Positions 356 to 12,477 of a stretch of 28,551 bases of DNA are shown here, one piece after another (position 1 is the first letter of the stretch; each line of letters opens with the position of its first letter). The notes beneath the pieces are model-generated. The model was not told the origin of the DNA and ran no database searches. It saw only the letters and a list, made by a program, of their open reading frames with translations. Both the position numbers and the translations under genes were made by a program. The stretch spans positions 1 through 28,551 of the forward strand of contig JASGJW010000009.1 of the NCBI GenBank assembly GCA_047601145.1, read 5' to 3'. This DNA comes from Hyphomonadaceae bacterium. GTDB taxonomy: Bacteria; Pseudomonadota; Alphaproteobacteria; Caulobacterales; Hyphomonadaceae.

Positions 356-430
356 TGGTGCCGCGTGAGGGGATTGAACCCCCGACCTTTGGTTTACAAA
401 ACCACTGCTCTACCGCTGAGCTAACGCGGC
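356..430 (-). tRNA. tRNA-Thr (anticodon UGU), CCA encoded
   Basis: The reverse complement reads GCCGCGT-TA-GCTC-AGCGGTAG-GAGC-A-GTGGT-TTTGTAA-ACCAA-AGGTC-GGGGG-TTCAATC-CCCTC-ACGCGGC-A-CCA. It has a 7-bp acceptor stem, the D-loop AGCGGTAG, U33 and A37 in the anticodon loop with TGT at positions 34-36, and the T-loop TTCAATC. Confidence 0.9.
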
Positions 431-908
431 CCTCGCGCGCCGACTACCCGCAAGGAACGCGACTGTCTACTGTCTCTTGTACGGGACTGTTCCTAAAGTA
501 CAATTCCAGTCGCCGAGGCGCATGCGGGTTTTTCCACGCAGAGCACGTCATCGCGCATGACCGCCGCACAAAAACGACGCTGGTTTCTGGCAATCCGGTA
601 GCGTTGTACGAAACTCACGTCCCTCGCGCACCGGACGACCGCGCCAGGTCGAGCGTGATCGAGATGCTGTGGGCGGGCGAGACGCTGTGGGCGAGAACAA
701 AACATAGCGTGCCACTTCATTAGCGCCGAGGAAGCCGGCGCAGACCACAGCGCGCCCCTAAGACCGCCCCGACGGCGCCATGTACAAAAGTCTGGATTTA
801 TCAAGCGTGTAGAGCGTAGCGCGCGCGGAGCGTTCTGAAAGCTACAAATATTTTCGCCGATCGTGTGACCCGATTTGCCGAGCTGGGACGCCATCAGAGG
901 TAAGACCA

Positions 909-1493
909 ATGGAGTCTCCTTTGATGCAAAGCCCTGTCGTCGACATCTCGCAGATCCCTCAGGCTTATTGGCCGCTCATCGACTGGCTGTTCACCGGCCT
1001 CATCGTCCTGGTCGTCCTCTGGATCGCTTCTACGGTCTTCATCGTTTTGCGCCGCAACGCGTCCGGACTTACACCGGTCCAGGCCGCCCGGATCAACAAG
1101 AACGCGCGTCCCGACTTCCTCGATGGCGATCAAAAGAAGCGCAAGGAGGCCCTGGAGCGGGGCGCCGCCTACGACCGCGAGCTTGAAAAGGCGGAAGCCG
1201 AAGAGCGTGAGGTCGAGCGCAGAAAATCCAAGGAGCCGCTCACGGCGACCCAGCGCCTGATGCGATTGTTGAGCCTCGTCATGGCGCTGTTCTCGCTTGC
1301 AACACTGATCGGCAGCGTGATCTTCCAGATTAACTACATCAGCGGCCTGCTGGAGCAGGCCTCGGCTGGCGACCAAATAATCCAGTTGGTTTTGCGCCAT
1401 CCAATCGGCGTCACGATCGCGGTCGTCGTCATCCTCTATCATGTCGTGACCTTCGTCACCGATAAGAAATGGAAGCCGGCCGAGCAGGTCTGA
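909..1493 (+). CDS. hypothetical integral membrane protein: 1 N-terminal TM, a charged coiled-coil loop, 2 C-terminal TM
   Basis: ATG at 909 with GAGG 8 nt upstream (alternative ATG at 924). The hydrophobic segments are LIDWLFTGLIVLVVLWIASTVFIVL, LLSLVMALFSLATLIGSVIF and PIGVTIAVVVILYHVVTFV. A KR/E-rich loop (KKRKEALERGAAYDRELEKAEAEEREVERRK) separates them. It is the first gene of the module. Confidence 0.6.
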   Translation: MESPLMQSPVVDISQIPQAYWPLIDWLFTGLIVLVVLWIASTVFIVLRRNASGLTPVQAARINKNARPDFLDGDQKKRKEALERGAAYDRELEKAEAEEREVERRKSKEPLTATQRLMRLLSLVMALFSLATLIGSVIFQINYISGLLEQASAGDQIIQLVLRHPIGVTIAVVVILYHVVTFVTDKKWKPAEQV

Positions 1494-1534
1494 TCCGCTC
1501 GCGCCGAATCCCTGACATTCCAGAAAGCTTCATC

Positions 1535-3133
1535 ATGTCCAGCAAGACCCTCCTTGTTAGCGATCCCTCGCTCGTCGCCGAGTTCGTGCGCCAGTCCGAA
1601 TTTCAGGGCATCCTGGAAAAGCGGTTCGCGGTGCCCGAAGATTATCTCGCCATCCTGTTCCGCAACGGCAAAATCGTGGACGCTTACAAGGGCGCTCACT
1701 TCTCCGTTGGCGGGCTTGTGAATTCCCTCAAGGGGATCATTGGCGGCTCAACCAGCATCGGGATGTTGATTGCTGACCTGAAACCATTCCAGGTCAGCCA
1801 GACATTCCGCGCCCTCTCGCAGGACAAGGTGGAGATCGTCGGCGTCGCCGCCATAGAACTTCAGCTGGACCCCGAACAGCCGCAGAATATTCTAGGCATG
1901 ATGTCGGGCCGCCGTTCGCTTTCGCGTGCGGACATTCTTGCTCGCATACGCCCGCACTTATCCGATCGCATTCTGGAAGCCGTCCTGGCGCGTCATGGCG
2001 CGCTGGAGATCCGCGGCAATACCGGCCTGCAGGATAAGATCCAGGCTGACATCATGAAGGAGGTTGAGCGCGTTGTTGGCGGTCTCGGCATCATTGTGAA
2101 CGCCGTATCGATGGAATGGGCGGTCAACGAAGTCGAGCGCAGCGCCATGGATAGCGCGGCGGCCGATCGGGCCGAAGCTGAACGTGAAGTTGCAATCAAG
2201 CGGGCGCTGCGCGAAGCCGAGCGCGTAAAGGATGCGACGGAATTCGCTATCCGCACCGATATAGACCAGAAGAAGTTCGCGCTGGTCAAGGAGCAAGAGC
2301 TTGCTCAGCTCATCCTCAACAAGGAGGTCGAGTTCGTGGACCTGCGCGAGGCGCACCAGCGTCGCCAGGAACTCGAGGTCATCGAGCACGAGGTCAAAAC
2401 ACTTCAGGCCGAACGCGAAGCGCGTTTCGAGAATGAACTGGCCGAAGCCCAGCAAATCCAGGATCTCACTCAGCGAAAGCTTGCGATCAAGAAAATCGAG
2501 CTGGAAATCGAGAAGATGGAGCGCCTGTCGCGCCTCGATCTGGAAAAGATCGAAGCCCTGACGCGCATCGAGATCAACCAAGCCTCTCAGGCCAGTGCGG
2601 CGCAGAATATCGCAACGCTCGCCGGGATCGAGCAGCAGCAGGATGAGCAACGCTCCAACTTGCGGGAAAAAGAAAAGCAGGCCCAACACGAGCGCGACAT
2701 CATCGCGACGAAAGTTGGCAACCAGGCAGAATACGACCTTCTGGCGCTCAAGGGAAAAATGACGCCCGAGCAACTGCTTGCGCAGCAGGCTGGGTTAAGC
2801 CCTGGCGTTGCCGCTGTTCTCGTGGAGCAGGCAAAAGCGCAATCTTCGTCCAAGGACGAAGTCATGCACATGATGCGTGAGCTGGTCGACGCGGCCAAGG
2901 AAGCGCGTGTTTCCTCTGAACAGCAAGCCAAGGCCATGTTCCAGATGGGTATGGACGGCGCGGTGGGAATCGCTTTTGGCGCAGGCGGCAAATCCGCCGC
3001 GCCGGCAACCGCCGCCGAAGCTGCCGGCCGCACGCCGGCTGCAGCTGTCGACATTGATTGCCCAAAGTGCGGCCGGACGAACGCGCCCAAAGCACGCTTC
3101 TGCGCCGGTTGTGGCCATCAGCTGCGGACCTGA
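1535..3133 (+). CDS. SPFH/band-7 (flotillin-like) protein without TM, with long E/A/R-rich coiled coil and C-terminal Cys4 zinc ribbon
   Basis: ATG at 1535 (MSSKTLLVSD). The N-terminal ~230 aa have SPFH-like features (GKIVDAYKGAHFSVGG ... DLKPFQVSQTFRALSQDKVEIVGVAAIELQLDPEQ). A ~250-aa heptad-rich EAxR/K segment follows, as in flotillin repeats. The protein ends with CPKCGRTNAPKARFCAGCGHQL. The stop at 3131-3133 lies 2 nt before the next ATG. The ORF track starts it at 1469 with a non-ATG codon. Confidence 0.65.
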   Translation: MSSKTLLVSDPSLVAEFVRQSEFQGILEKRFAVPEDYLAILFRNGKIVDAYKGAHFSVGGLVNSLKGIIGGSTSIGMLIADLKPFQVSQTFRALSQDKVEIVGVAAIELQLDPEQPQNILGMMSGRRSLSRADILARIRPHLSDRILEAVLARHGALEIRGNTGLQDKIQADIMKEVERVVGGLGIIVNAVSMEWAVNEVERSAMDSAAADRAEAEREVAIKRALREAERVKDATEFAIRTDIDQKKFALVKEQELAQLILNKEVEFVDLREAHQRRQELEVIEHEVKTLQAEREARFENELAEAQQIQDLTQRKLAIKKIELEIEKMERLSRLDLEKIEALTRIEINQASQASAAQNIATLAGIEQQQDEQRSNLREKEKQAQHERDIIATKVGNQAEYDLLALKGKMTPEQLLAQQAGLSPGVAAVLVEQAKAQSSSKDEVMHMMRELVDAAKEARVSSEQQAKAMFQMGMDGAVGIAFGAGGKSAAPATAAEAAGRTPAAAVDIDCPKCGRTNAPKARFCAGCGHQLRT

Positions 3134-3135
3134 TT

Positions 3136-4386
3136 ATGCCCGTTTCCGCTTCCCCCTCGGGCGCTGCGCTAGCCGACCTCAGCCATTTCGGGGTTTCCAG
3201 CCTCGTTGTGGATCACCTTCGGCCGAAATGCTGTCGGGCGAGTGCGCGTAGCTCTGCGGATGCGGCTTACTGCAACGAATGTGGAAACCTCATTCTACGT
3301 TGCGCAGCCTACGAGGAGTGCGGCGGTCTCGTTGATGAAACGGGTTTCTGCCCCTCCTGTTTCAACCTCGAGTCATTTCTCGATTCCGGCGCTGTTCGCC
3401 ACGCGAAGGTTGGCTCCTCGATGACGTTGCCGCTCATATTCCGCAATGCGGGCGGTCACGGGCGCGCGTTGTTTGCATCCGAGCTGTGGATCCGTCAGGG
3501 AGCGGGCGAGCGCGTACGCCAGCCGATTCCCTGGGAGCGGCTGAATGCGGGGCAAAGCGCATCATGGACGTTGCAGACGCAGCCCCTCCAGCAGACCGGC
3601 CGCCAGAGTTTCGAGGTTATTCTCGTCGTCGCCAGCCGTGCTCGTTGGCGCGAGGAAAAGTTCGCTCTTGCCGCAAACATGGAAATCGGCGTCGAGGACG
3701 ATGGTCGGGTCGTCGTAAATCAGACGATCAACGTGGCGGGCGGCGAAGTGGCAGGTGCGGGCCACACGGTCTACGCGCCGATCCGCATCGAGTCAGACAG
3801 CCGCAGCCACGTTCAGGAACAGGGCTCCAAAGATCCTTCCCCGCTTGCGCTTTCGCGGGCGGACGGCTTCGAGCGTGAGCGGCGCCTTCGTGGGACGACA
3901 CACGGTCTGGTCGACAGGACGGTCAAGCTCGAATGGAAGGGATTTTCCCCCGATGAGGCCGGTCCGCTCGGCCCTATCATAACGTCGGATGGAATGCTCG
4001 CGCTTGGCCGATCGCGCCTCAAGTCACAAGAGGGCGTAACCGACGTGCGCCTGACGGTTCGCGATGCCGCCGGCAGGCTCAACAGGGTTCTGAGCGAAGA
4101 GATTTCGCGCCGCCATATCGATCTGTTTGTTCAAAACGGCGCCCTTTGCGTACGGGCTTCGGGCAAGGCCGGTCTGAGAGTGAACGACCAGGGCCTGCGC
4201 CAGGGAGAAGTCATCGCCCTGGGGGATGGCGACCGTCTCGTCGTGTTGCCGCGCCGTCCCACGGCGCTGGCGCTGGACGTCCGCTTTGAAGTTCATCACG
4301 GCGTTGTCGAACTAGTGACGCTGACACGTGTGCCGGCCACGCCTGGCGAGGCCTCCTCAAACATTCGGATGAGAGCAGGATCATGA
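3136..4386 (+). CDS. zinc-ribbon / FHA-domain protein
   Basis: ATG at 3136 (MPVSASPSG). The N-terminus is Cys-rich (CNECGNLILRC ... CGGLVDETGFCPSC). The C-terminal ~100 aa match FHA hallmarks: LGRSRL..(G-R), SRRH (S-R-x-H), a NG..VN-type loop (SGKAGLRVNDQGL) and a GD..L motif (GEVIALGDGDRLVV). The stop TGA overlaps the next start (ATGA at 4383-4386). Confidence 0.6.
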   Translation: MPVSASPSGAALADLSHFGVSSLVVDHLRPKCCRASARSSADAAYCNECGNLILRCAAYEECGGLVDETGFCPSCFNLESFLDSGAVRHAKVGSSMTLPLIFRNAGGHGRALFASELWIRQGAGERVRQPIPWERLNAGQSASWTLQTQPLQQTGRQSFEVILVVASRARWREEKFALAANMEIGVEDDGRVVVNQTINVAGGEVAGAGHTVYAPIRIESDSRSHVQEQGSKDPSPLALSRADGFERERRLRGTTHGLVDRTVKLEWKGFSPDEAGPLGPIITSDGMLALGRSRLKSQEGVTDVRLTVRDAAGRLNRVLSEEISRRHIDLFVQNGALCVRASGKAGLRVNDQGLRQGEVIALGDGDRLVVLPRRPTALALDVRFEVHHGVVELVTLTRVPATPGEASSNIRMRAGS

Positions 4387-5957
4387 AGTGTCCGCATTGC
4401 TCCGTTGCGGTTCCCGAAGACGCGCGTTTCTGCCCCGAATGCGGCAAGCGCATAACCGGTGCGATGGCCGATGCTTCGGCGTCCATGTCGATGCAATCCG
4501 GTCCCGTGCTCACATTCGGCGGGTTGCAGACGATGGATGGGCCTTCCTCGCGCGCCTCCAGCACGGGTTCGACGGAGGCGTTGCTTGAGCCAGGCGATCT
4601 GTTCGCGGATCGCTACGAGATCAAAGCGGTTATTGGGGCAGGGGGGGCGGGCGTCGTCTATGCGGCGCGCGACAAGGTCACATCCGAAGACGTCGCGCTG
4701 AAACTTATCCGACCTGACCGCCTGCATGGGAGCGACGCCGTCTCGCGGCTGGTGCGCGAAGGCGTCACGGCTCGGGGCGTTCGCCACCCTAACGTGATCG
4801 CTGTCTATGACGTTGGAGAAGCTGATGGTCAGCCCTACATGTCGATGGAGCTGGCACAGGGACAATCCCTGAGATCGTGGAACCAGAAACGGCTTGCCGC
4901 GCGCCGTGACTGTTCGTTGAAGACAGCTGCGGTCATCGTGTCAGCGATCCTTGACGGCCTTGAGGCGGCTCACGCGAAAGGGATCGTCCACCGCGATCTC
5001 AAGCCTGAGAACGTGATCCTGACGAGCGAGCCGTCGGATGAGGGCGTCACTCTCAAGATACTTGATTTCGGCATCGCCATCGCGGTTGGCGCGACCACAG
5101 GAATATCGGGTTCCGGGCCTGCAGGCTCGATTGGTTACATGGCGCCTGAACAACTGACGGCCCCCGACACGGTCGGCCCCTCGGCGGACCTCTATTCCGT
5201 TTCGGTGATCTTCTACGAATTGCTGATGGATGCCCCGCCGCAGGGTCACTGGCAGCCGCCCAGCGGCGGGCGCTCTGGTATTTCAGCCGGAATTGACAGC
5301 TTGATCGAGAACAGCCTGTCAAACCGAGCGCGAAGCCGGCCGCAATCGGTTGCCGACTATCGCAAGGCTATGAAAGCCGCACTCGGCCCGATGGGCATGG
5401 TGGACTGGAAGACACTCTATCAGCCGCGTCGCAGCAAGTTGCCGACAAATATCCCAAAGTGGGTGTGGTGGACCGCGGGCATCATCATCGGCCTTAGCGT
5501 GATTGCTTACCTGATGGACGAGTATTCCGGCGCCAGCGGGGGCGACTATGATCAGTACGGTTCGGTGACGCCGGCGACGGCGGTTGGGACAGCGCCCGAG
5601 GGCGCCGTCAAGCAAACTGCCGTCACCGTCCCATCACAGAGGCCAGCTCCCTCGCGTCTTTCGGGTTCGTGGGACGACGGCGCCGGCTCGATCTGGCGGG
5701 TGAACGTCACCGATGGCGGGCAGGTTACCGGTCAGGCGACATCCGGAGCTGCGACGGGGATGGTCATGACGGGCGCCTTCGCCGGCGACCAGTTCAGTTT
5801 TCAGTCGGGCGTCAACGGCTATGGCGCGACGGTGCAGGGCCAAGGGCTCTTTGACGGCGGCTGCCACATCAATTTTCAGTCCTATGACGCTGGAACTGGC
5901 CTGACGTCGGCTGGGCAGATTCATGTCAATCACCCCGCAGGAGCGCCATGCCCATGA
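4383..5957 (+). CDS. Hanks-type Ser/Thr protein kinase: N-terminal zinc ribbon, kinase domain, single TM, extracytoplasmic Gly/Thr-rich domain
   Basis: MKCPHCSVAVPEDARFCPECGKRI is a zinc ribbon. Kinase motifs present: GAGGAGVVY (P-loop), VALK, HRDLKPENV, DFGIA and GYMAPE. The TM segment is WVWWTAGIIIGLSVIAYLM. A ~150-aa C-terminal domain lies outside the membrane. Confidence 0.8.
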   Translation: MKCPHCSVAVPEDARFCPECGKRITGAMADASASMSMQSGPVLTFGGLQTMDGPSSRASSTGSTEALLEPGDLFADRYEIKAVIGAGGAGVVYAARDKVTSEDVALKLIRPDRLHGSDAVSRLVREGVTARGVRHPNVIAVYDVGEADGQPYMSMELAQGQSLRSWNQKRLAARRDCSLKTAAVIVSAILDGLEAAHAKGIVHRDLKPENVILTSEPSDEGVTLKILDFGIAIAVGATTGISGSGPAGSIGYMAPEQLTAPDTVGPSADLYSVSVIFYELLMDAPPQGHWQPPSGGRSGISAGIDSLIENSLSNRARSRPQSVADYRKAMKAALGPMGMVDWKTLYQPRRSKLPTNIPKWVWWTAGIIIGLSVIAYLMDEYSGASGGDYDQYGSVTPATAVGTAPEGAVKQTAVTVPSQRPAPSRLSGSWDDGAGSIWRVNVTDGGQVTGQATSGAATGMVMTGAFAGDQFSFQSGVNGYGATVQGQGLFDGGCHINFQSYDAGTGLTSAGQIHVNHPAGAPCP

Positions 5958-6448
5958 TGCGCTCGCTCATCTTCCCTGGGCTGATTGTGCTCGTCGCCTG
6001 CGGTGAAGCTCCTTTCAAGGCGCCGCGACCGGAAGCGTCCGATCTAGACGGCGCTCCACCAAAATCGATCGCATTCCCCTCGGGAGACTGGACCGACGAT
6101 TACGGTGATTTGTGGAAGGCCTCTGTAGACGAGGGGAAAGTTTCCGCCGTCGCCTCCTGCGGTCCGCGACTTGGCTCGGTGCTTTCCGGCAACGTCGCGG
6201 AGGGCGTTCTCGACTGCAGGATCAGCGATGGCGCAGGCGCTGAGTACGCCGCGGGCCGCGCCCAGCTGATCAACGATCGACATGCGTTCTTCGAAACCCG
6301 CTTTAAGGACGGCAGCGCCACTTCCGAAGGCCTGCTGCACCTCCTTCATGATGCTCCCGTGCGAAAGTCCGGCCCAACCTCCTCGACAGCCTGCGTCGAA
6401 ATCCCGGTTCCCCCGCCGCTGGCGGCCCCGACAAATCCGACGCCCTGA
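5948..6448 (+). CDS. lipoprotein paralogous to the kinase extracytoplasmic domain
   Basis: ATG candidates at 5948, 5954 and 5957, overlapping the kinase stop. The signal peptide carries the lipobox LVA-C (MPMMRSLIFPGLIVLVACGE). SGDWTDDYGDLWKASVDEGKVSAVAS aligns with SGSWDDGAGSIWRVNVTDGGQVTGQAT in the kinase C-terminus. Confidence 0.6.
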   Translation: MPMMRSLIFPGLIVLVACGEAPFKAPRPEASDLDGAPPKSIAFPSGDWTDDYGDLWKASVDEGKVSAVASCGPRLGSVLSGNVAEGVLDCRISDGAGAEYAAGRAQLINDRHAFFETRFKDGSATSEGLLHLLHDAPVRKSGPTSSTACVEIPVPPPLAAPTNPTP

Positions 6449-6481
6449 GTTCAACCCTTTGCCACCCCAGCGGAGCGCGCC

Positions 6482-7444
6482 ATGAGTGAGATGTGGAAAT
6501 CCTATCGCCTCGATACCTGCTTGTTCGAGCCGCCCTCGATCCAGGCGCCCATCCTGCGCGCCACCGCCAGGATTTCAACGCTTCCGCCGCGTGTCGACCT
6601 GAGGCCGCTCTGTTCGAAGGTGGAAGACCAGGGTCAGGTTGGCTCCTGCGCGGCCAACGCCGTCGTTGGCGCGCTGGAGTATCATCAGCGCAAGGCCGGT
6701 CTCAACGTGACCGATCTTTCGCGACTGTTCGTCTACTACAACGCCAGAAATATGGCCAACAAGACTGCGGAAGACTGCGGCACGATGATCTCGCACGTGA
6801 TGGCCTCCGTCCTGGCCTTCGGCGCCTGCGAGGAGCGCTTGTGGCCATACATCGAAGCCATGTGGCCTGAAAAGCCGACACAGGCCTGCTATGGAAACGC
6901 GCTTCGCTATGAGGCGGTGTCTTATGCGCGCGCGCCTTTGGGCGATGCGTGCCTGATAGCCCTGGCGCAAGGCCTGCCGATCGTGTTCGGCACCTTCCTG
7001 CCGAGTGATTTCTATGGTGTCGCCGCGCAAACGGGTGTCGTGCCCGAGGTCAGCGAAAGCGTGGAGGCGCCAGGCGGAGGACACGCAATGCTGCTGGTGG
7101 GTTACGATCTGCCGACGCGCACCTGGCTGGTTCGCAACAGCTGGAGCGAGAAGTTTGCAGACCGGGGCTATTTCCGCATCCCTTTTTCAACGCTCAACAC
7201 CTATTCAATGCCTGATGGGTTCTGGACGATCGGAGCCATTGAAGTTCTCGAGGGCGTTCAGTTGCACGGTCTGGGCGTGCGGGAAGCGATGCGCGCTGCC
7301 AGCATGGCCGCCCCTAACGATGTCGAGAGCAGCCTCGAGCGGTTACGCAAGAATATCCGCAAGAAGCTGAACACTGATCTTGAAGAGAAGAGGAAAGACG
7401 TCCGTGACCGTTTGCGCGGCCCAGGTGTCGGAGGAGGCTACTAG
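6482..7444 (+). CDS. papain-like (family C1A-type) cysteine peptidase, no signal peptide, with C-terminal basic/coiled extension
   Basis: LPPRVDLRPLCSKVEDQGQVGSCAANAVV aligns with papain [31 protein letters not shown], with Gln19 and catalytic Cys25 conserved. GGHAMLLVGYD matches GGHAV..VGY, the catalytic His. VRNSWSEKFADRGYFRI matches the NSWG..WG..GY Asn motif. There is no N-terminal signal peptide, and the disulfide Cys22 equivalent is Val. Confidence 0.75.
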   Translation: MSEMWKSYRLDTCLFEPPSIQAPILRATARISTLPPRVDLRPLCSKVEDQGQVGSCAANAVVGALEYHQRKAGLNVTDLSRLFVYYNARNMANKTAEDCGTMISHVMASVLAFGACEERLWPYIEAMWPEKPTQACYGNALRYEAVSYARAPLGDACLIALAQGLPIVFGTFLPSDFYGVAAQTGVVPEVSESVEAPGGGHAMLLVGYDLPTRTWLVRNSWSEKFADRGYFRIPFSTLNTYSMPDGFWTIGAIEVLEGVQLHGLGVREAMRAASMAAPNDVESSLERLRKNIRKKLNTDLEEKRKDVRDRLRGPGVGGGY

Positions 7445-7557
7445 CCTTCCGAGCGAGCATGCCGGCAAGACAGAAACTGTATTCCCCCGCATCGTCAAAA
7501 ACGAGGAAGCGGGCCAAGACGCGGGCCAAGACAAGGAAGCGGACGAAAACGAGGAAT

Positions 7558-7590
7558 CGGCGAGGGAATGGGCTCGCCGCTTCTTCATGG
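7558..7590. terminator. possible bidirectional terminator hairpin between convergent genes
   Basis: CGGCGAG-ggaatggg-CTCGCCG is a 7-bp stem with an 8-nt loop at 7558-7579. It is followed by CTTCTTCAT on the plus strand and ATTCCTCGTTTTCG on the minus strand. It lies between the peptidase stop at 7444 and the convergent gene stop at 7622. Confidence 0.3.
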
Positions 7591-7621
7591 GTTTACGGCG
7601 ATTGTCGCCTGCACGGCTCGG

Positions 7622-8434
7622 CTACTTCCTGCCCAGCCGCGCCAGCAGCTCAGCCTTTTTCGCTTCAAGTACAGCGTCCAGACCATTCATCGCAGCGGCT
7701 GGTGGTTTGCCGGGGCCGGACCTCGTCGCTGCCAGCGCCTCGCGGGGTGAAACGACTTTTGGCGGTTTCAGTGGTCCCATGGGCGGGATGGGCGCAAAAT
7801 GCGTGGAGGCAAGATAGCCTCCACCTGCGCCTTGGCCCGCCATGGAACCTGGCGCGATGACTTGCAGTTCACCGGCGACGGTCACCAAAGTCTTCAGCAC
7901 CGCGTTGCGGCCGGAGATCATAACCATGGTCTCGCCGGGCGCTTCCGGGATGAAGGCATGCTCCATCTGGTCGCGTCCGCGGGGGAAAAGCCGGAAGATG
8001 CCGCCGTTGGCGCCATAGAGTTCAATAACCACAGAGTGCAGGTCGCGAAGACCCCGCATGCGGTACCGCCACTCACGGCCGGCTTCCGTCTGCCTTGGGG
8101 CTTCGACGTCGATAATGTAGCCCCCGCCGGCGCCGGGCCCATCATCACCCGCACGGGCGCCAGAAGTTGCGGCTACCGTGAAGCTATGGCTGGCCCTTGC
8201 AATCGCTGTTCCGAACTCATCCTGCGCAATCGCATCTATGCGTTCTGCTCCGGGAAAGCTCATGCCTGCGCTGTACGAGAGGGATGTGGCGCCCCGCGTC
8301 TCCTTGATATCAAATCCCACATTGCCGGAGATACCTGCCACGTCGAACTTGATCGAATACGCATCGCCAAAACTGGCGGCTGTTACGGTGATCGAGCCGT
8401 TGTCCGAAACACGCGATGGACCCGTAAGATGCAT
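7622..8434 (-). CDS. hypothetical glycine-rich protein, no signal peptide
   Basis: ATG at 8434-8432 (minus strand) has AGGAG 7 nt upstream. The translation MHLTGPSRVSDNGSITVTAASFGDAYSIKFDVAGISGNVGFDIKETRGATSLSYSAGMSF... has two GAGGGY motifs and a helical basic tail (LEAKKAELLARLGRK). The ORF track extends it to 8731 without a credible start. Confidence 0.5.
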   Translation of the reverse strand: MHLTGPSRVSDNGSITVTAASFGDAYSIKFDVAGISGNVGFDIKETRGATSLSYSAGMSFPGAERIDAIAQDEFGTAIARASHSFTVAATSGARAGDDGPGAGGGYIIDVEAPRQTEAGREWRYRMRGLRDLHSVVIELYGANGGIFRLFPRGRDQMEHAFIPEAPGETMVMISGRNAVLKTLVTVAGELQVIAPGSMAGQGAGGGYLASTHFAPIPPMGPLKPPKVVSPREALAATRSGPGKPPAAAMNGLDAVLEAKKAELLARLGRK

Positions 8435-8643
8435 TTGAAACTCCTGCCGGCCGCATTGGCCCCAACAGGGAAGGCGCAGGATCCGCCGGGAACGGGCCAA
8501 GTCGCCGCCTTTTTTTTGATGAATTTTGGGCCGCGCCCGACCGGCCATCCGCCAGACGCCTTGCGGGCGCAGGTAAAATGAAGTGAAATCAGGCCGCTGG
8601 TTCTCTGGCGGGCGCGCAATCAAAGGGGACGTTGGCGCCTGTC

Positions 8644-8667
8644 GAACGAGTGGGTTGCCGGGTCTGA
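8644..8667 (+). promoter_or_regulatory. candidate ECF-type (autoregulatory) promoter, GAAC -35 / GTCTGA -10 like
   Basis: tcGAACgagtgggttgccggGTCTGAtat lies ~50 nt upstream of the proposed GTG start of the ECF sigma gene and resembles GGAAC..N15-16..GTCT ECF promoters. It is a weak match. Confidence 0.2.
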
Positions 8668-8718
8668 TATTTGTTCCGGGGCGGCCCGCGGGGAGAATAC
8701 CGCAACAGGGGTAGGCGC

Positions 8719-9261
8719 GTGGGCGGTGCAAACAGCGACGAGGAGAAGGGGGCCGGGCGGGCCACCCATCGGGACGCCTTGCTGCGCGAACATTATGACG
8801 AGTTTCGCAGGGTAGCTGGCCGGGTCCTCAATGGGGACGCCAAGGTGCTGCAGATTCAGCCGACCGATCTCGCGCATGAAGCAGTGATCCGTCTCTCAAA
8901 GCTCAATCAGATTGACCTCGAAGGTCGCACGCATTTTCTTTCGCTCTCGGCGCGCGTGATGCGTCAGATCCTGATTGACGAAATTCGCCGGGTGCGCGCA
9001 GCCAAACGTAAACCGCCCACGATTGTCACGCAGCTTCCGCCTGAGCTGGGCCACCAGTCAGTTGATCTTGAAGATCTCGACCGTGCTCTTACAAAACTGG
9101 AAGCGATTGCCCCTGACCATGCCCGTCTCGTCGATCAGCGTTATTTTGCCGGCCTAACGGTTGAACAGATCGCCGTGGTTGAAGCGACGTCCGTCAGCAC
9201 TGTGAAGCGCCAATGGCGAGCCGCCCGCGCCTGGCTGCTTGCGGAACTTGGCGCGCGATAG
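8719..9261 (+). CDS. ECF-family RNA polymerase sigma factor (sigma-70 regions 2 and 4)
   Basis: Region 2-like DLAHEAVIRLSKL and region 4 HTH LVDQRYFAGLTVEQIAVVEATSVSTVKRQWRAARAWL. GTG at 8719 is chosen because an upstream candidate promoter would otherwise sit inside the ORF. The ORF track starts at TTG 8671, so the start is uncertain. The stop lies 3 nt before the next ATG. Confidence 0.65.
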   Translation: MGGANSDEEKGAGRATHRDALLREHYDEFRRVAGRVLNGDAKVLQIQPTDLAHEAVIRLSKLNQIDLEGRTHFLSLSARVMRQILIDEIRRVRAAKRKPPTIVTQLPPELGHQSVDLEDLDRALTKLEAIAPDHARLVDQRYFAGLTVEQIAVVEATSVSTVKRQWRAARAWLLAELGAR

Positions 9262-9264
9262 GTC

Positions 9265-11697
9265 ATGAACCATCCGCTGACCCGCCGCGCTCTTGATATC
9301 TTCGAGCAAGCCCTCGGAATTGATGAGGCGGGGCGGGATCTTTGGCTCGCAACAATTTGCGCAGGCGATGCCGCGTTGGGCAGCGAGGTCCGACGTCTTC
9401 TAGCCGCGGATGCGATCGCCGAGCGAGCCCTGCCGACCGGTGATCTGCAGCCCCGTGACGGGCCTATCCCCGAACACATTGGCCGCTACCGCATTGTCGA
9501 GCGCCTTGGACAGGGCGGCATGGGCGATGTCTTTGCCGGAGAGCGTGATGACGGCCTCTTTGACCATGCCGTCGCTATCAAACGCGTGCGTCCCACGCTT
9601 TTTGCTGAAACCGCCAAATCTTTGTTCGACCGCGAACGCCGCGCGCTGGCAACTCTCAGTCATCGGCATATCGCGCAGTTGTTTGACGGGGGCGTAGATG
9701 AGACCGGCGCGCCCTATCTCATCATGGAACTCGTCCGCGGTGTCTGCATTGACGAATTTGTGCGTCAGCATGACCTTTCACCGCAAAAAATCGCGGCCAT
9801 GATGATCGCGGTCTGTGATGCTGTTCAGCATGCCCACCAGAAGCTCATCGTTCATGCCGATCTCAAGCCAGCCAATATCCTCGTGAACGAAGCGGGCGAT
9901 CCCAAAGTCGTTGATTTCGGCGTTGCGCGACTGATTGGGGAAGGAGGCGAGGGCGGGATCTATCCCCATACGCGAGGCTATGCCAGTCCGCAGCGCGCGG
10001 CCGGCGCTGCGCCAACTCCCGCCGATGACGTCTATGCGCTGGGGGCAATTCTGTGCGTCCTCCTTACGGGCGAGCCCCCTGAGAGCGGTAACGCACTCCT
10101 CACGCCTTCGCGCGTGACCGAGCGGTCAGCTGCTTTTACCGATCGCTCCGCCAATTGGCTCCGATCACGGGCGCGCGAAATGCGGGGCGATCTCGACGCC
10201 ATCATTGCACGGGCCTGCGCTGAAAATGCCGAAGACAGGTATCCCGCCGCCCACGCCCTCTCTGCCGATCTGCAGGCCTGGCTCGAATTTCGCCCGATCG
10301 CGTCCAGGTCTGAAGACACCTTCTATGTCTTTCGAAAATTCGTCCGCCGTCGCCGCTGGCGAGTGATTGGGGGCGCCACATTTTCCATCGCGCTCATCAC
10401 TGCGCTCATCGTCACTGTGTTGCTCTATACTCAAGCCGACTTTCAGCGTCGTCAGGCTGAGGCGCGTTTCGATGAGGTGCATTCGCTCGCAAGGTATTTG
10501 TTATACGATGTCTATGACCGGCTCGAGCAATCCCCCCAGACCCTAGCGATGCGTCGCGACGTTGCCCGCGTGGCTCAGGGCTATCTCGATGTGCTGGCCG
10601 CTGCTCCGTCGGCCCCGCCGGATGTGCTGCGCGAAGCTGCCGAGGGGCTGGTGCGGATTGCCGATCTTCAGGCAGGCCGATCGCGCGCCAATCTTGGCGA
10701 GCTGATCCAGGCTTTGGCAAACCTCGAGAAGGCGAGTGCGATCGCTGCCCGTTTGCCGGAGCACCCGCAGCGGGATGGTTCCACGTTTGCTCTGCGTGCT
10801 GGCATTGCCATTCGCCAGGCGTCCCTGGCGATGAATTCCAATCAGGATTTACCGAGAGCTTCGCGCCTGCTCGATCAGGCCGCGCGAGACATCGCAAAGC
10901 TATCCGACGACGGCAAATTGCGATCAATGCTGACGCTGCAGTTCGAGGTCGAGTCAGCCGTCCTTGCCAACTGGAAGGGCGTCTACGCCGAGGGCGTTCA
11001 GCATGCCCAGCGTGCAATCAATGTTGCGGGTGCTCTGCCCATCAACGCGGCGGATGCCCGCGACGCCCACTATCTCCTGGCGCGCGCGTGGGATGCTTAT
11101 GCGGAGGCCACCTACTACGGCACGGGAGAGGCAGCATCGGTGCCTGCTTACAGCAAGCTCGTGAGCATCGCATCGAGCTATGCGTCATCCCATCCCGACG
11201 ACATGATGGGCGTCAGGATCGCAATCGAAGCTCACTGGGCGCTTGGAACCACCCTCCTCGGCATCGAGCGTCTGCGTGACGGCCTGAGGGAGCTCGATGA
11301 TGCGAACAGGCTCCTTCCCCGGCTGTTGCGGTTCCAGCCCGATGACGAAGGTGCACGTCGGACCCAGCAGATTGTGCTCGGCGCCCGGGCCCAGGCGCTC
11401 GCGATGAATGGGAGGTTCGCCGAAGGGGTGGCCATCCTGAAGGAAAGGCTAGCCTCTGCAGAACAGGCGGCGAGCACGCCAGACGCAGTTGCGGCGGACA
11501 AACGCTCGCTTGCCGTTACAAAGACAATGCTTGCCGATCTTTACGCCGATTCAGGTCGCGCTGGACCCGCGTGCACGCTCTATGACGAGGCCGATGCGAT
11601 CTTTTCTGGCCTTGAAGCGCAGGGTCTTCTGTCTCAGCTTGACCGGGACAGCGCTCAGCGGATGGCGCGCGAGCAGAAGGACAAATATTGCCGATGA
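9265..11697 (+). CDS. membrane Ser/Thr protein kinase (HAD variant of HRD) with C-terminal TM and large helical repeat (TPR-like) domain; likely partner or regulator of the upstream ECF sigma
   Basis: Kinase motifs LGQGGMGDVF, AVAIKRV, HADLKPANIL and DFGVARL, plus an APE-like GYASPQ. The TM segment is VIGGATFSIALITALIVTVLLY. A ~400-aa helical C-terminal domain lies outside the membrane. It is translationally coupled to the sigma gene. Confidence 0.75.
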   Translation: MNHPLTRRALDIFEQALGIDEAGRDLWLATICAGDAALGSEVRRLLAADAIAERALPTGDLQPRDGPIPEHIGRYRIVERLGQGGMGDVFAGERDDGLFDHAVAIKRVRPTLFAETAKSLFDRERRALATLSHRHIAQLFDGGVDETGAPYLIMELVRGVCIDEFVRQHDLSPQKIAAMMIAVCDAVQHAHQKLIVHADLKPANILVNEAGDPKVVDFGVARLIGEGGEGGIYPHTRGYASPQRAAGAAPTPADDVYALGAILCVLLTGEPPESGNALLTPSRVTERSAAFTDRSANWLRSRAREMRGDLDAIIARACAENAEDRYPAAHALSADLQAWLEFRPIASRSEDTFYVFRKFVRRRRWRVIGGATFSIALITALIVTVLLYTQADFQRRQAEARFDEVHSLARYLLYDVYDRLEQSPQTLAMRRDVARVAQGYLDVLAAAPSAPPDVLREAAEGLVRIADLQAGRSRANLGELIQALANLEKASAIAARLPEHPQRDGSTFALRAGIAIRQASLAMNSNQDLPRASRLLDQAARDIAKLSDDGKLRSMLTLQFEVESAVLANWKGVYAEGVQHAQRAINVAGALPINAADARDAHYLLARAWDAYAEATYYGTGEAASVPAYSKLVSIASSYASSHPDDMMGVRIAIEAHWALGTTLLGIERLRDGLRELDDANRLLPRLLRFQPDDEGARRTQQIVLGARAQALAMNGRFAEGVAILKERLASAEQAASTPDAVAADKRSLAVTKTMLADLYADSGRAGPACTLYDEADAIFSGLEAQGLLSQLDRDSAQRMAREQKDKYCR

Positions 11698-11886
11698 TCC
11701 CCTCAGGAAGCGCTATTTGAGCCGACAGCTCTGCCTGTCAGACGAGAGCGTCTACTCCCCCCCTGCAGCCAACTCGGTCCTGGCGGTCCGCAACATCTTG
11801 GCGCGACAGCTCGAGGCGCGTTGACCCTTCAGTTGAGCTCCCACGGCTCCTTGCGTTTACGCGTCAGCAACAATCCATGAATAAGG

Positions 11887-11920
11887 TGCTATTAGCATAT
11901 AGATGCAGCGCGGCGCTGCA
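11887..11920. promoter_or_regulatory. two adjacent palindromes upstream of the pilin gene (candidate operator or 5'-UTR hairpin)
   Basis: TGCTA-T-TAGCA at 11887-11897 and TGCAGCGC-G-GCGCTGCA at 11904-11920, ending 20 nt before the pilin ATG at 11940. Confidence 0.3.
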
Positions 11921-11939
11921 GTCGAGCTGGGTTTGCGGG

Positions 11940-12470: not shown

Positions 12471-12477
12471 GGCCGCA

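Follow-up and report, generated by a model that had tools for sequence, protein, structure and literature searches.

Along 28,551 nucleotides of a Hyphomonadaceae contig (the whole stretch analyzed, hereafter the window), six genes follow one another between positions 909 and 7444, raising the question of whether they work together and, if so, at what. The initial annotation had described them as a translationally coupled module for sensing envelope stress or for an abortive-infection-like defence. The operon is real and previously undescribed: no system found in PADLOC, NCBIfam or the searchable literature has its gene combination, which that annotation had already set apart from the described NfeD-FloT, PspA-YdjGHI and FhaA-PknB arrangements.

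Layout and products of the operon

An ORF check of the window placed all six genes (g1 to g6) on the plus strand at 909-7444, as first annotated, and reading of the sequence bore out their junctions. The stop of g1 (1491-1493) is followed after a 41-nt gap by the ATG of g2 at 1535 (an in-frame start further upstream, the ATG at 1469, is unused in homologues); g2 ends in a TGA at 3131-3133, 2 nt ahead of the g3 ATG at 3136, g3 and g4 share an ATGA overlap at 4383-4386, the coding regions of g4 and g5 overlap at 5948-5957, and the g6 ATG at 6482, with GGAG ahead of it, follows the g5 stop at 6448. Gene junctions are likewise tight in the copy of the module in Hyphomonas neptunium ATCC 15444 (locus L001, from the gene called at 9434-9997 to the C1 gene at 14363-15310; its SPFH gene is HNE_1634). 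Between the convergent g6 and g7, a consensus scan found a weak terminator-like GC-rich hairpin (7558-7579, plus strand; 7-bp stem with 6 GC pairs).

The first gene, g1 (909-1493, plus strand), encodes a membrane protein of 194 aa with three TM segments (residues 19-51, 116-148 and 156-186) and a highly charged cytoplasmic loop of ~65 residues, for which profile searches gave neither a Pfam nor an NfeD match. In 65 of 66 loci (the related loci with enough flank, window counted) a gene of this type immediately precedes the SPFH gene; the g1-type product carries an invariant juxtamembrane motif, RRxA[ST]NLT, with T55 kept in 76/78, together with a second conserved motif, PDF[LM]xVDxKAR; g1 is a candidate membrane anchor for g2.

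The g2 product (1535-3133, plus strand; NCBI product P0001, 532 aa) has no predicted TM segment and combines an SPFH fold with a long coiled coil, a helical C-domain and a C-terminal Zn ribbon. While Zn_Ribbon_1/DZR was found in 25/25 members of its family, Pfam Band_7 matched 0/25, and g2 itself fell below the thresholds of both Band_7 and Band_7_1. Its AF2 model (pLDDT 71), in which an SPFH alpha/beta domain is followed by helices at 199-408, was compared with the PDB by Foldseek; the top matches were all SPFH, 58 with E<=1e-3, HflK/C reaching 4.6e-10 and the HflK/C-FtsH entries 7vhq, 9cz2 and 7wi3 being among them. Distant relatives of g2, moreover, exceed the Band_7 gathering score. The flotillin-like SPFH call of the initial annotation, which was to be given up if it failed HMM thresholds, thus formally fails in Pfam and is rescued only by structure and intermediate sequences, whereas the claim that the protein is TM-less stands. 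The SPFH assignment is clear at the fold level, on a model of only moderate confidence, and homology to YdjI or flotillin would extend only to the fold or superfamily.

The FHA, Hanks kinase and C1 peptidase calls were upheld by HMM searches. The g3 protein (3136-4386, plus strand; 416 aa, no TM segment predicted) has a double Zn ribbon, a beta-sandwich domain and a C-terminal FHA domain scoring 24.2 bits against a gathering score (GA) of 20.7; G296, R297, S329 and R330 are invariant in 75/75 homologues, as are the Zn-ribbon cysteines, and the deposited annotation (P0121, 321 aa) misses this conserved Zn-ribbon N-terminus. In its AF2 model, of moderate confidence (pLDDT 63), the beta-sandwich at 78-200 has only weak Ig-like matches. 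The sensor kinase g4 (4383-5957, plus strand; 524 aa) consists of a Zn_Ribbon_1 at residues 2-23, a Hanks Ser/Thr kinase domain (Pkinase E 3.5e-41) in which K107, HRD, DFG and APE are invariant in 48-49 of 49, a single TM at 360-379 and an extracytoplasmic domain of ~145 aa, replaced by DUF805 in some lineages. This ectodomain is paralogous (29% identity at g4 residues 427-517, E 2e-8) to the g5 lipoprotein (5948-6448, plus strand; 166 aa, lipobox LVAC), which matched no family in domain and family profile searches.

The last gene, g6 (6482-7444, plus strand), encodes a xylellain-type C1A cysteine peptidase of 320 aa (Peptidase_C1 50 bits, GA 20.7; nearest solved structure 3OIS, E 1.8e-33), predicted to be cytoplasmic with neither signal peptide nor TM, in which Q50, C56, H201 and N219 are invariant in 84/84. 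With catalytic or pThr-binding residues invariant in 49-84 homologues, the g4 kinase, the g3 FHA protein and the g6 peptidase are predicted to be active.

Conservation and genomic context

Homologues were found co-localised in other genomes: in 58 of the 66 loci TM protein-SPFH-FHA-kinase-C1 form a single chain on one strand, these loci spanning Hyphomonadaceae, Sphingomonadales, Pirellulaceae and Gammaproteobacteria, and the operon is intact in ~60 marine and soil bacterial species. Independent look-ups started from the peptidase arrive at this module too, including a case in which the peptidase gene lies convergently. These results bear out the claim that the genes make up a single conserved functional unit, of which the core has five genes rather than six; g5 is an accessory present in only 13/66 loci, and the system also reaches 7622-11697. 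That the neighbours came together by chance, or are purely syntenic and share no function, is scarcely credible: the domain families are each common among bacteria, but the order is kept at 34-50% protein identity across phyla, stop and start codons overlap, a natural SPFH-FHA fusion protein exists (P0259), and the association outlasts rearrangements (FHA and kinase swapped in L037, L042 and L044, peptidase convergent in L088, FHA displaced in L025). The sequence comparisons already contradict such an arrangement.

Only 92 relatives were recovered from 185,579 species, and 1.8 billion representatives yielded 67 clusters at E<=1e-30. The carriers belong mostly to Hyphomonadaceae (Hyphomonas, Henriciella), while those in Pirellulaceae form a clade of their own; the phylogeny is clade-wise, and within clades the module keeps a stable position and stable flanks (L001/L021/L068, for instance, have coordinates in common, as do L009/L010/L012). 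Its patchy spread across phyla implies horizontal transfer, a history that would also suit an accessory or defence role. A tRNA-Thr gene at 356-430 (minus strand), 479 bp from g1, had suggested an insertion hotspot, a proposal that found no support: its 3' end is directed away from the module, the window contains no repeated tRNA fragment, and 51/60 related loci lack a tRNA within 10 kb.

Linkage to an ECF sigma/kinase pair and a recurrent promoter-like motif

Upstream of g1 we found a bipartite promoter-like motif (866-893, plus strand; TGACCCGATTTGCCGAGCTGGGACGCCA; PWM 22.1) with a -35-like TGACCC, a 16-nt spacer and a -10-like CGCCA, its form being TGACCCG-N16-GCGCCT; it ends 15 nt ahead of the g1 ATG and is preceded by an AT-rich stretch at 846-855. 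At least 43 of 79 loci have a homologous motif ~60-67 nt upstream of g1, against 3.5 expected from shuffles; the PWM matched 83 times over all loci, and in a 20-locus subset 30 matches were observed vs 0 after shuffling. The motif also precedes displaced FHA and STK2 genes (an FHA gene in L025, for example), g7-like genes and the gene for a 142-aa protein with 4 TM present in 37 loci.

Its second copy in the window (8472-8499, minus strand; TGGCCCGTTCCCGGCGGATCCTGCGCCT; PWM 20.8), with an upstream A-run, putatively drives g7 (7622-8434, minus strand), whose ATG at 8434 lies 37 nt past the end of the motif behind an AGGAG RBS. The 270-aa g7 product is cytoplasmic, matched no Pfam family and has the peptidase-tail motif twice (GPGAGGGY, GQGAGGGY). 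The C-terminal helix conserved among module peptidases, in g6 a basic ...VRDRLRG followed by PGVGGGY at the C-terminus, often ends in PGAGGGY; the Gly-rich motif is the exact C-terminal end in 32/84 peptidases, and second peptidase paralogues bear 2-6 tandem GPGAGGGYD[KR] units. Among all ORFs of ~80 loci (~1.5 Mb), G[AV][GA]GGY was limited to C1 peptidases and g7, which is likely a co-regulated client or substrate; g7 homologues in L008 and L013 likewise sit behind the promoter motif.

Next to g7 lie g8 (8671-9261, plus strand; start codon uncertain), a kinase-associated ECF sigma factor (PF07638 Sigma70_ECF, E 7e-34), and g9 (9265-11697, plus strand), a transmembrane Ser/Thr kinase of 810 aa (Pkinase E 6e-36, TM at 365-393) with a large C-terminal helical, TPR-like domain whose TPR match is weak. 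No anti-sigma gene is adjacent to g8, and in its sigma2.2 region a Ser/Thr-containing QPTD (STGD in most homologues) stands in place of the first acidic residue; the catalytic K, D and DFG of g9 are conserved in 47/47, and g9 is the presumed activator of g8, phospho-activation being documented for kinase-partnered ECF sigmas (PMC13147305, PMC7826278). Sigma factors of the g8 type are linked to the module in 42/66 loci, in several orientations, and g9-type kinases in 43/66. Presence of the motif goes together with that of an ECF sigma gene in the same locus (31/4/4/17; Fisher p 2e-7, phylogeny not corrected for), and where the kinase is split from the sigma gene (L042, L062) the motif precedes the kinase gene; no copy was found ahead of the sigma gene, an unusual arrangement for ECFs. 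In about a third of loci (Pirellulaceae, Gammaproteobacteria and several Hyphomonadaceae MAG clades) the pair is missing nearby and the usual position lacks a strong motif. The g1-g6 operon may well belong to a local regulon of the kinase-activated sigma g8 and its kinase g9.

Proposed function and competing explanations

The part of the initial annotation that read the module as sensing envelope or membrane stress is strengthened by the sigma/kinase pair and the shared motif, both of which it had missed. We tentatively propose, at a little under an even chance, an ECF-controlled membrane-stress module in which a tethered SPFH assembly organises phospho-regulated proteolysis. We infer its transcription, oligomerisation, phosphorylation targets and peptidase substrates as follows. 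On sensing an envelope or membrane signal, g9 would activate g8 through phosphorylation, as in ECF43 systems, and switch the operon on. The g2 protein would oligomerise into a flotillin/HflK-like assembly on the cytoplasmic membrane face, tethered by the charged loop of g1. A periplasmic cue would be read by the g4 ectodomain, aided by g5 where present; g4 would then phosphorylate a partner threonine, the best candidate being the invariant T55 of g1, and binding of this pThr by the Zn-ribbon/FHA protein g3 would assemble or open the complex. The output would be regulated cytoplasmic proteolysis by g6, whose C-terminal helix and Gly-rich tail may dock it to the scaffold or hold it latent there, g7 being a co-client or substrate through the shared tail.

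The other suggestion of the initial annotation, anti-phage or abortive-infection (or anti-predator) defence, in which the kinase detects infection or attack on the envelope, FHA relays the signal and the peptidase is a toxic effector restrained by the SPFH scaffold, gained no positive evidence and is unlikely. PD-T4-6, MADS6 and other defence kinase models give the kinase domain strong scores, the spread over Alphaproteobacteria, Planctomycetota and Gammaproteobacteria is patchy, and peptidases and kinases are duplicated and sensor domains variable among loci, a pattern typical of fast-evolving conflict systems; in Xanthomonas, an anti-amoeba T6SS is under the control of an ECF43/kinase pair (PMC13147305), and phages have acquired xylellain-type C1A genes (PMC10380794). 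However, PADLOC matches cover the generic kinase domain only, the other five proteins matching nothing, and no copies were found in 72,556 plasmids, 50,697 phages or 2.9 M viral contigs. The flanks are ordinary chromosomal housekeeping genes (pilus operon, MetRS, ectoine synthesis, SOD, TonB receptors) with no defence islands, GC content is even, and neither the within-clade stability of position and flanks nor the unconserved tRNA link fits such a role.

Hyphomonadaceae and Pirellulaceae both contain budding bacteria, and in Actinobacteria STK/FHA pairs (PknB-FhaA) control cell-wall growth and division. This would suit a morphogenesis or cell-cycle module of budding or prosthecate bacteria, with SPFH and kinase/FHA organising growth of the membrane or envelope at stalk or bud and the peptidase processing a structural protein; loss of YdjG/H, too, causes shape defects under stress (PMC8581546). 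We consider this improbable, as the module is not universal and also occurs in Sphingomonadales and Gammaproteobacteria MAGs not known to bud, division and peptidoglycan genes are absent nearby, and alternative, stress-type sigma control points to conditional expression. Just as doubtful is a peptide- or protein-processing system in which the peptidase cuts specifically at the Gly-rich G-P-G-A-G-G-G-Y, the tandem repeats of paralogous peptidases and g7 are precursors yielding short peptides or fragments, and SPFH, kinase and FHA only time the processing. The distribution of the motif and weak Peptidase_C39_2 (double-glycine peptidase-like) matches among homologues speak for it; against it, more than half of the peptidases, including the whole H. 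neptunium clade, lack GGGY and stop at ...RLRG(K), few loci have g7-like genes (window, L008 and L013), the module holds neither exporter nor modification enzyme, and the motif might just as well serve for docking or auto-inhibition.

For the membrane-stress reading, the closest analogues appear to be the sigmaW-controlled PspA-YdjGHI system and HflK/C-FtsH. The former is an ECF (sigmaW)-controlled operon in which a TM-less SPFH protein with a C-terminal zinc finger, YdjI, is anchored by the small membrane proteins YdjG and YdjH (PMC8581546), much as g1 is proposed to tether g2; in the latter, SPFH cages, whose fold g2 matches, are partnered with a protease. Unlike PspA-YdjGHI, the present module has no PspA/ESCRT-III gene, and unlike NfeD-FloT it has no NfeD gene; a phosphatase gene is likewise absent. 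Taken together, the operon looks like a membrane surveillance device under the control of a stress sigma factor, not a mobile phage-defence island.

Gene order and conservation of the operon

All six plus-strand open reading frames that the initial annotation had placed between positions 909 and 7444 are present in the window, a Hyphomonadaceae MAG contig of 28,551 bp, and the junctions it described are borne out on the sequence. Gene g1 (membrane protein) stops at 1493 and g2 (SPFH protein) begins at ATG 1535; the TGA of g2 at 3131-3133 is followed by the ATG of g3 (zinc-ribbon/FHA protein) at 3136; g3 and g4 (Hanks kinase) share an ATGA overlap at 4383-4386; g4 overlaps g5 (lipoprotein) at 5948-5957, and the g5 stop at 6448 precedes the ATG of g6 (C1 peptidase) at 6482. 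The true start of g2 is 1535 and not the in-frame upstream ATG at 1469, which would open a 554-aa ORF, homologues and the deposited 532-aa product (NCBI protein QM773_21600) being in agreement on this point. In the case of g3 the deposited annotation (P0121, 321 aa) uses an internal start about 95 codons late, omitting window 3136-3420; since the double zinc ribbon encoded 5' of that start has invariant cysteines in 75/75 homologues, the true start is 3136.

Relatives of g2 were collected by scanning 185,579 species, each represented by a single genome. This gave 92 relatives; 80 loci were fetched and the window proteins were mapped onto them. Co-occurrence was counted over the 66 loci with enough flank, the window among them. 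The idea that homologues of these genes are never co-localised in other genomes fails decisively, as the chain TM protein-SPFH-FHA-kinase-C1 is kept on a single strand in 58/66 loci. Taken one by one, the g1 homologue and the FHA gene are each found in 65/66 loci, the kinase gene in 64/66 and the C1 peptidase in 60/66; g5 is present in 13/66. Linkage is also kept through rearrangement, namely where the FHA/kinase order is swapped (L037, L042, L044), where the FHA gene is displaced (L025), where the peptidase gene is convergent (L088), and where the kinase is duplicated or one to three peptidase paralogues occur. Moreover, the same module was reached by two look-ups that began with peptidase homologues and did not depend on the SPFH query.

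From the kept order, its survival through rearrangements and the invariance of catalytic and binding residues, we are highly confident that the module genes are one functional unit. The six-gene module proposed by the initial annotation therefore stands as a conserved unit but not in its composition, as five genes are core (g1, g2, g3, g4 and g6) and g5 is accessory.

In P0259, a metagenomic cluster representative of 943 aa, the SPFH and zinc-ribbon/FHA proteins are fused in frame (over 373 residues it is 38% identical to g3, E 3e-75). This may be a genuine SPFH-FHA fusion or an indel artefact, the latter because the two genes lie only 2 nt apart.

Domain content of the encoded proteins

The g1 product has three TM segments and a charged loop of ~65 residues, and it matched no Pfam or NCBIfam family; its motif RRxA[ST]NLT holds an invariant Thr55.

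The assignment of g2 to the SPFH proteins is secure at the level of the predicted fold and is the weak point at the level of sequence. In the AF2 model (pLDDT 71) long helices spanning ~200 residues come after an N-terminal alpha/beta domain, and a Foldseek search of the PDB returned 58 matches with E<=1e-3, at the head of which (probability 1.00, best E 4.6e-10) stand HflK/C, stomatin, prohibitin, erlin, flotillin, QmcA and the major vault protein (MVP). Neither Band_7 (PF01145) nor Band_7_1 (PF13421) matched g2 in Pfam at E<=0.1, and NCBIfam likewise gave no match; 0/25 members of the g2 family, each searched singly, matched either model at E<=0.01, and the family profile retrieved only zinc-ribbon matches among PDB sequences. 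For this reason it is the structure, together with a set of intermediate sequences, that supports the SPFH call. The latter came from an exhaustive search of 1.84 billion representatives, in which the distant relatives P0361, P0349 and P0337 matched the g2 family profile (E 1e-19 to 1e-31) and themselves passed Band_7, with 31-48 bits against a gathering score of 23.6. The HMM check suggested for SPFH thus had a mixed outcome: the Pfam gathering score is missed by g2 itself, and the fold is supported by AF2/Foldseek and by relatives that pass Band_7.

These three relatives, together with P0324 and P0331 (same range of profile E-values, Band_7 also passed), belong to a wider and very diverse set of proteins of 520-680 aa with SPFH, coiled-coil and one or two zinc-ribbon parts, at 14-28% identity. 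A metagenome scan for the gene context of P0361 found nothing.

The helices predicted by AF2 at residues 199-235, 271-304 and 308-408 of g2, C-terminal to the SPFH domain, make up the coiled-coil region, which aligns with the walls of flotillin and HflK/C in long Foldseek alignments. No hydrophobic segment that could serve as an N-terminal membrane anchor was found anywhere in g2, which in this respect resembles YdjI and MVP.

The FHA, Pkinase and Peptidase_C1 assignments of the initial annotation held up against HMMs: g3 passes Pfam FHA (24.2 bits, gathering score 20.7), g4 matches Pkinase at E 3.5e-41 and g6 passes Peptidase_C1 (50 bits, gathering score 20.7). The pThr-binding residues G296, R297, S329 and R330 of g3 are present in 75/75 homologues, and H332 in 68/75. 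The g3 family profile matched no PDB sequence, and a fold search with the g3 model gave for the middle domain only weak generic Ig-like, ApaG or CARDB matches, none at E<=1e-3. The DZR-FHA layout of g3 presumably recalls that of cyanobacterial FraH.

In g4 a zinc ribbon precedes the kinase domain, one TM segment and an ectodomain of ~145 aa; K107, H203-R-D205, D228-F-G and P255-E are invariant among homologues (Lys/HRD/DFG/APE in 48-49 of 49). The ectodomain is variable, and in some lineages DUF805 stands in its place. The g5 product, which has the lipobox LVAC, is paralogous to this ectodomain of g4 (29% identity, E 2e-8).

The g6 product is a short, intracellular C1A peptidase of the xylellain type. 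Its catalytic Gln50, Cys56, His201 and Asn219 are conserved in 84/84 homologues, and xylellain of Xylella fastidiosa (PDB 3OIS) is the closest solved relative (E 1.8e-33, residues 30-253), with which it shares the short form lacking an I29 propeptide and the catalytic Gln/Cys/His/Asn. No signal peptide, hydrophobic N-terminus or I29 match was detected in g6, and the Pfam match begins at residue 34. A class of short bacterial C1A peptidases has been described, and reported as rare in Alphaproteobacteria (PMC10380794). Unlike xylellain, g6 has a set place in an operon alongside SPFH, kinase and FHA genes, and it bears a C-terminal extension of ~65 residues (basic helix and RLRG-PGxGGGY) outside the 3OIS alignment.

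This tail is a family trait: past the catalytic domain, 84/84 peptidases bear a basic amphipathic helix ending in R-[DES]-R-L-R-G, and in 32/84 the sequence P-G-A-G-G-G-Y that follows RG is the very C-terminus (PGVGGGY in g6 of the window). Second C1 paralogues end in two to six tandem GPGAGGGYD[KR] units (L030 7924-8994, L035 13982-15058, L041 14015-15106, L042 14829-15899, L053 14052-15185, L066 11098-12204 and L071 14052-15155). Among all ORFs of at least 50 aa in ~80 loci, G[AV][GA]GGY was found only in C1 peptidases and, twice, in g7, a minus-strand gene at 7622-8434 of the window. The start of g7 is ATG 8434 (270 aa), the mechanical ORF of 369 aa from TTG 8731 being too long judging from the ribosome binding site, the ATG and a promoter motif; the protein carries the G[PQ]GAGGGY motif twice, its basic helix at the C-terminus is similar to the peptidase tail, it matches no family and has no TM segment, and its homologues among the related loci are limited to L008 and L013. 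The peptidase tail may serve for docking or as a cargo signal, may inhibit its own enzyme as a pseudo-substrate, or may be where cleavage takes place.

The sigma/kinase pair and a promoter-like motif

Downstream of the module, g8 (8671-9261) encodes an ECF sigma factor (PF07638, E 7e-34) and g9 (9265-11697), beginning 4 nt past the g8 stop, an 810-aa transmembrane Ser/Thr kinase (Pkinase, E 6.4e-36). The catalytic K, D and DFG are invariant among g9 homologues, and g9 of the window has HAD where most read HRD. No anti-sigma domain was detected near g8 in the window. In region 2.2 the first acidic residue gives way to the Ser/Thr-containing QPTD (STGD in most homologues), the second Asp being retained, as the acidic residue is in the QATE of EcfK (PMC13147305). 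With its adjoining Hanks kinase, its lack of an anti-sigma and the Ser/Thr in region 2.2, g8 bears hallmarks of the kinase-activated ECFs, in which uncharged residues with a conserved phospho-acceptor Thr (consensus QTTA) take the place of the DxxD motif of that region (PMC13147305). It thereby resembles ECF43 (EcfP-PknT of Vibrio parahaemolyticus, EcfK-PknS of Xanthomonas citri), where an ECF gene likewise sits beside a transmembrane Hanks kinase without anti-sigma and where QTTA/QATE corresponds to QPTD in g8 (PMC13147305, PMC7826278); the likeness is one of gene context and region 2.2, and no autoregulatory motif was found. The pair adjoins the module in 42-43 of 66 loci, at a variable position: divergent upstream (as in Hyphomonas neptunium), split around the module, or downstream.

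Alignment of the DNA 5' of g1 revealed a motif made of an AT-rich stretch, TGA(C/A)CCG, 15-16 nt and (c)GCGCCT, the 5' end of which lies 60-67 nt ahead of the g1 start codon. In the window one copy precedes g1 (866-893, plus strand, PWM score 22.1), and by PWM and sequence context another precedes g7 (8499-8472, minus strand), followed by AGGAG and the ATG. The motif occurs 5' of g1 in at least 43 of 79 loci, compared with 3.5 expected from shuffles; at a PWM score of at least 17 there are 83 matches in all loci (1.5 Mb, both strands), and for a 20-locus subset 30 were observed and 0 after shuffling. Its geometry (hexamer, 16-nt spacer, hexamer, leader of ~30 nt) is, to judge from the sequence, that of an ECF-type promoter. 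A scan for sigma70-type promoters inside the module gave nothing useful, and none of what we take to be the EcfG (GGAAC-N16-CGTT), RpoH and sigma54 promoter types fits the motif.

The motif and the sigma gene tend to occur together: 31 loci have both, 4 the motif only, 4 the sigma gene only and 17 neither (Fisher p 2e-7, uncorrected for phylogeny). Motif copies also lie ahead of a 238-aa membrane protein (8 loci), of the FHA gene displaced in L025 and, in L042 and L062, of the sigma-linked kinase, which is split from the sigma gene there. Based on the promoter-like geometry, the linkage of motif and sigma gene and the hallmarks of kinase-activated ECFs, we infer that the module is the main target of the g8-type sigma factor. 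Two observations speak against such targeting, as no copy of the motif was detected ahead of the sigma gene, either in the related loci or in the window, and lineages without a sigma/kinase pair nearby have only weak or displaced motif copies. On balance, control of the module by the sigma factor seems to us somewhat more likely than not.

In 37 loci the module has as a neighbour a protein of ~142 aa with four TM segments and the C-terminal sequence ARRDFGVG, often preceded by a motif copy of its own (L001, H. neptunium ATCC 15444, 5922-6350; also, for example, L016 15787-16086, L028 8923-9366 and L074 8713-9135). Its gene lies either 3' of the peptidase gene, or in the interval from the sigma gene to g1, or on the far side of the sigma-linked kinase; no Pfam family matches the protein, and the window lacks it.

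In one Hyphomonas clade a minus-strand motif copy lies between the peptidase gene and the sigma-linked kinase, and is followed by a conserved non-coding stretch of ~110 nt (L008 15767-15930, L009 and L010 15790-15953, L012 15752-15915, L013 11744-11907, L015 15793-15956 and L054 15784-15947, all on the minus strand). This stretch folds into three hairpins with 31 pairs, 8 of which show compensatory changes. This RNA, a candidate for a small RNA under ECF control, has no family in Rfam and does not occur in the window.

Distribution, known parallels and proposed function

Carriers of the module are mostly Hyphomonas, Henriciella and Hyphomonadaceae without a genus name, with separate clades in Pirellulaceae/Planctomycetota MAGs, in Sphingomonadales (including the isolate Pontixanthobacter aquaemixtae) and in two Gammaproteobacteria MAGs; taxon labels of the MAG carriers are those of their depositors. 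It is a small family, with 67 clusters at E<=1e-30 among the 1.84 billion representatives. The SPFH sequences group by lineage and the Sphingomonadales copies nest inside the Hyphomonas/Henriciella cluster, which suggests mainly vertical descent with some old transfers. The contig of L008 (LNFC01000013.1), labelled Acidobacteria bacterium Ga0077551, encodes an SPFH protein 85-88% identical to those of Hyphomonas loci L009-L015 in the same gene order, and is probably mis-binned or mislabelled.

Nothing in the module or its surroundings points to a mobile or defence element. No match to g2 was found among PLSDB plasmids, INPHARED phages or IMG/VR contigs. The GC content is even (module 0.614, rest 0.628), and the flanks are ordinary, comprising a chaperone-usher pilus operon and MetRS in the window and, elsewhere, ectoine synthesis, SOD, TonB receptors and acyl-CoA dehydrogenases. 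The pilus operon (11877-16023, directly 3' of the sigma-linked kinase: an SCPU-domain subunit, a PapD-like chaperone, an usher and a second SCPU protein) has no motif copy, and no linkage to the module was seen in other loci. The tRNA-Thr gene, which had been regarded as an insertion hotspot, does not bear out that view: it lies on the minus strand, so its 3' end (356), where islands integrate, is directed away from the module; no tRNA fragment of at least 13 nt recurs in the window, the neighbouring window genes yielded no integrase, and the linkage is not recurrent, 51/60 related loci having no tRNA within 10 kb. A tRNA island was ruled out on the grounds of orientation, lack of a repeat and these tRNA-less loci.

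Among the closest known systems is pspA-ydjGHI (samGHI) of B. subtilis, which is under control of the ECF factor sigmaW and responds to membrane stress (PMC8581546; bioRxiv 10.64898/2026.02.06.704340); there the small integral membrane proteins YdjG and YdjH, encoded just upstream, tether YdjI, an SPFH protein that has no TM segment and bears a C-terminal zinc finger (PMC8581546). Similarly, g2 is TM-less with a C-terminal zinc ribbon, g1 lies upstream of it, and the locus has a promoter-like motif of ECF type along with a linked ECF gene; the order and architecture of g1/g2 are analogous to YdjGHI, ECF control being read here from motif and linkage only. However, g2 is the larger protein by ~200 residues, its coiled coil extends much further and it has no Band_7/Band_7_1 match, g1 is unrelated to any named family, and the Bacillus operon lacks the Hanks kinase, FHA protein and C1 peptidase, all of which the module has. 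The sigma factor of the module appears to be of the kinase-activated type and not anti-sigma-controlled. No PspA-family (PspA/ESCRT-III) match was found in any protein of 909-11697 or in the related loci.

As in HflK/C-FtsH, stomatin-NfeD (STOPP) and prohibitin-m-AAA, an SPFH protein with coiled-coil walls is encoded beside a protease, presumably its partner, and in the structural search g2 matched HflK/C, stomatin, prohibitin and QmcA-YbbJ best. Nevertheless, HflK/C, stomatin and prohibitin are anchored by their own TM segment or hairpin and g2 is anchor-less; their proteases are membrane AAA+ or serine (NfeD) enzymes and that of the module is a soluble papain-like cysteine peptidase; and in the module a kinase/FHA pair sits between SPFH protein and protease. 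No NfeD domain was matched by Pfam or NCBIfam in g1 or any other module protein.

The kinase/FHA pair has its own parallel in actinobacterial PknB-FhaA/FhaB, where a membrane Hanks kinase with an extracytoplasmic sensor is also encoded beside an FHA protein with conserved pThr-binding Arg and Ser. Unlike that system, the module has no PASTA domains, PP2C phosphatase, FtsW or PBP genes, its FHA protein carries an N-terminal double zinc ribbon and a beta-sandwich, and the pair lies between SPFH and peptidase. Archaeal ESCRT-linked proteins with SPFH, coiled coil and zinc ribbon neighbour STK, FHA and Ig-like proteins (Makarova et al. 2024, PMC10936438), and g2 has the same architecture, the likeness being one of architecture; those loci belong to archaeal lineages, are built around Vps4 and ESCRT-III, neither of which is in the module, and no peptidase is described there. 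As for ECF43, its polymyxin-resistance or T6SS targets are unrelated to the regulon proposed here (SPFH operon, four-TM protein and g7).

Taken together, these analogies lead us to favour, at somewhat less than an even chance, an ECF-controlled membrane-stress module in which a tethered SPFH assembly organises phospho-regulated proteolysis. The sigma-linked kinase g9 would phosphorylate and thereby activate g8, following the ECF43 precedent, and so induce the operon. The g2 protein would form an SPFH assembly on the cytoplasmic side of the membrane, where g1 would tether it in the way that YdjG/YdjH do YdjI (PMC8581546). Kinase g4 would sense a periplasmic cue through its variable ectodomain, of which g5 would be a soluble paralogue, and phosphorylate a partner, the best candidate acceptor being the invariant Thr55 in RRxA[ST]NLT of g1; g3 would bind this mark, and the similar zinc ribbons of g2, g3 and g4 may aid co-assembly. 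The peptidase would be held or released by the scaffold, in line with the recurrent SPFH-protease theme (HflK/C-FtsH, stomatin-NfeD, prohibitin-m-AAA), these proteolysis-gating steps being less certain than the rest.

A more specific version, which we consider unlikely, is a cargo-addressed, phospho-gated proteolytic SPFH cage induced by a kinase-activated ECF sigma. TM-less g2, tethered by g1, would form a closed flotillin/vault-like cage on the cytoplasmic membrane face; clients would be loaded through the C-terminal targeting peptide (basic helix and RLRG-PGAGGGY) of the peptidases and g7, acting like encapsulin cargo-loading peptides; and Thr phosphorylation by the sensor kinase, read by the zinc-ribbon/FHA protein, would open the cage or free the protease after membrane damage.

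Other explanations were weighed against the membrane-stress module. That it defends against phages or predators is unlikely: generic kinase similarity, patchy distribution and turnover of paralogues are the only points in its favour, and in PADLOC 2.0 g4 was matched through its kinase domain only (PD-T4-6, mad6, MkoA and PglW models), g1, g2, g3, g5 and g6 having no match at E<=0.1. The abortive-infection or defence role first envisaged for this operon loses its footing on these generic matches, on the lack of plasmid, phage or viral copies and on the ordinary flanks. A part in budding or stalk morphogenesis, weakened by the Sphingomonadales and gammaproteobacterial carriers, we regard as quite improbable, and we give as slim a chance to a peptide-processing system centred on the GGGY motif, since that motif is missing from more than half of the peptidases. 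Mere chance adjacency of the genes has a practically negligible probability, given the conservation of their order.

Each part of the module belongs to a known family. An operon under ECF control that encodes a tethered SPFH protein without TM segments is already known, as is the pairing of SPFH assemblies with proteases. In the searchable literature we found no description of the combination of SPFH protein, Hanks kinase, zinc-ribbon/FHA protein and soluble papain-like peptidase, nor of the peptidase tail and the candidate regulon, and searches on Hyphomonas SPFH, SPFH phage defence and H. neptunium locus tags did not return this operon. The system is well defined but taxonomically narrow, and the function given here is a proposed one.

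SPFH proteins (flotillins, stomatins, prohibitins, HflK/C) build membrane-attached cages, the contents and access control of which are understood for very few. This operon is a compact, genetically fixed set of an anchor, a putative cage-forming protein, a sensor kinase, a phospho-reader and a soluble cysteine protease with a distinctive tail, and it is present in the culturable and genetically tractable Hyphomonas neptunium ATCC 15444, where HNE_1634 (locus L001) is the SPFH gene. It would let one test whether SPFH assemblies are gated by Ser/Thr phosphorylation and whether their clients are addressed by a peptide tag; it could show the purpose of intracellular papain-like peptidases, almost unstudied in bacteria, and, for a kinase-activated ECF sigma in Alphaproteobacteria, it provides a candidate for both the regulon and the promoter.
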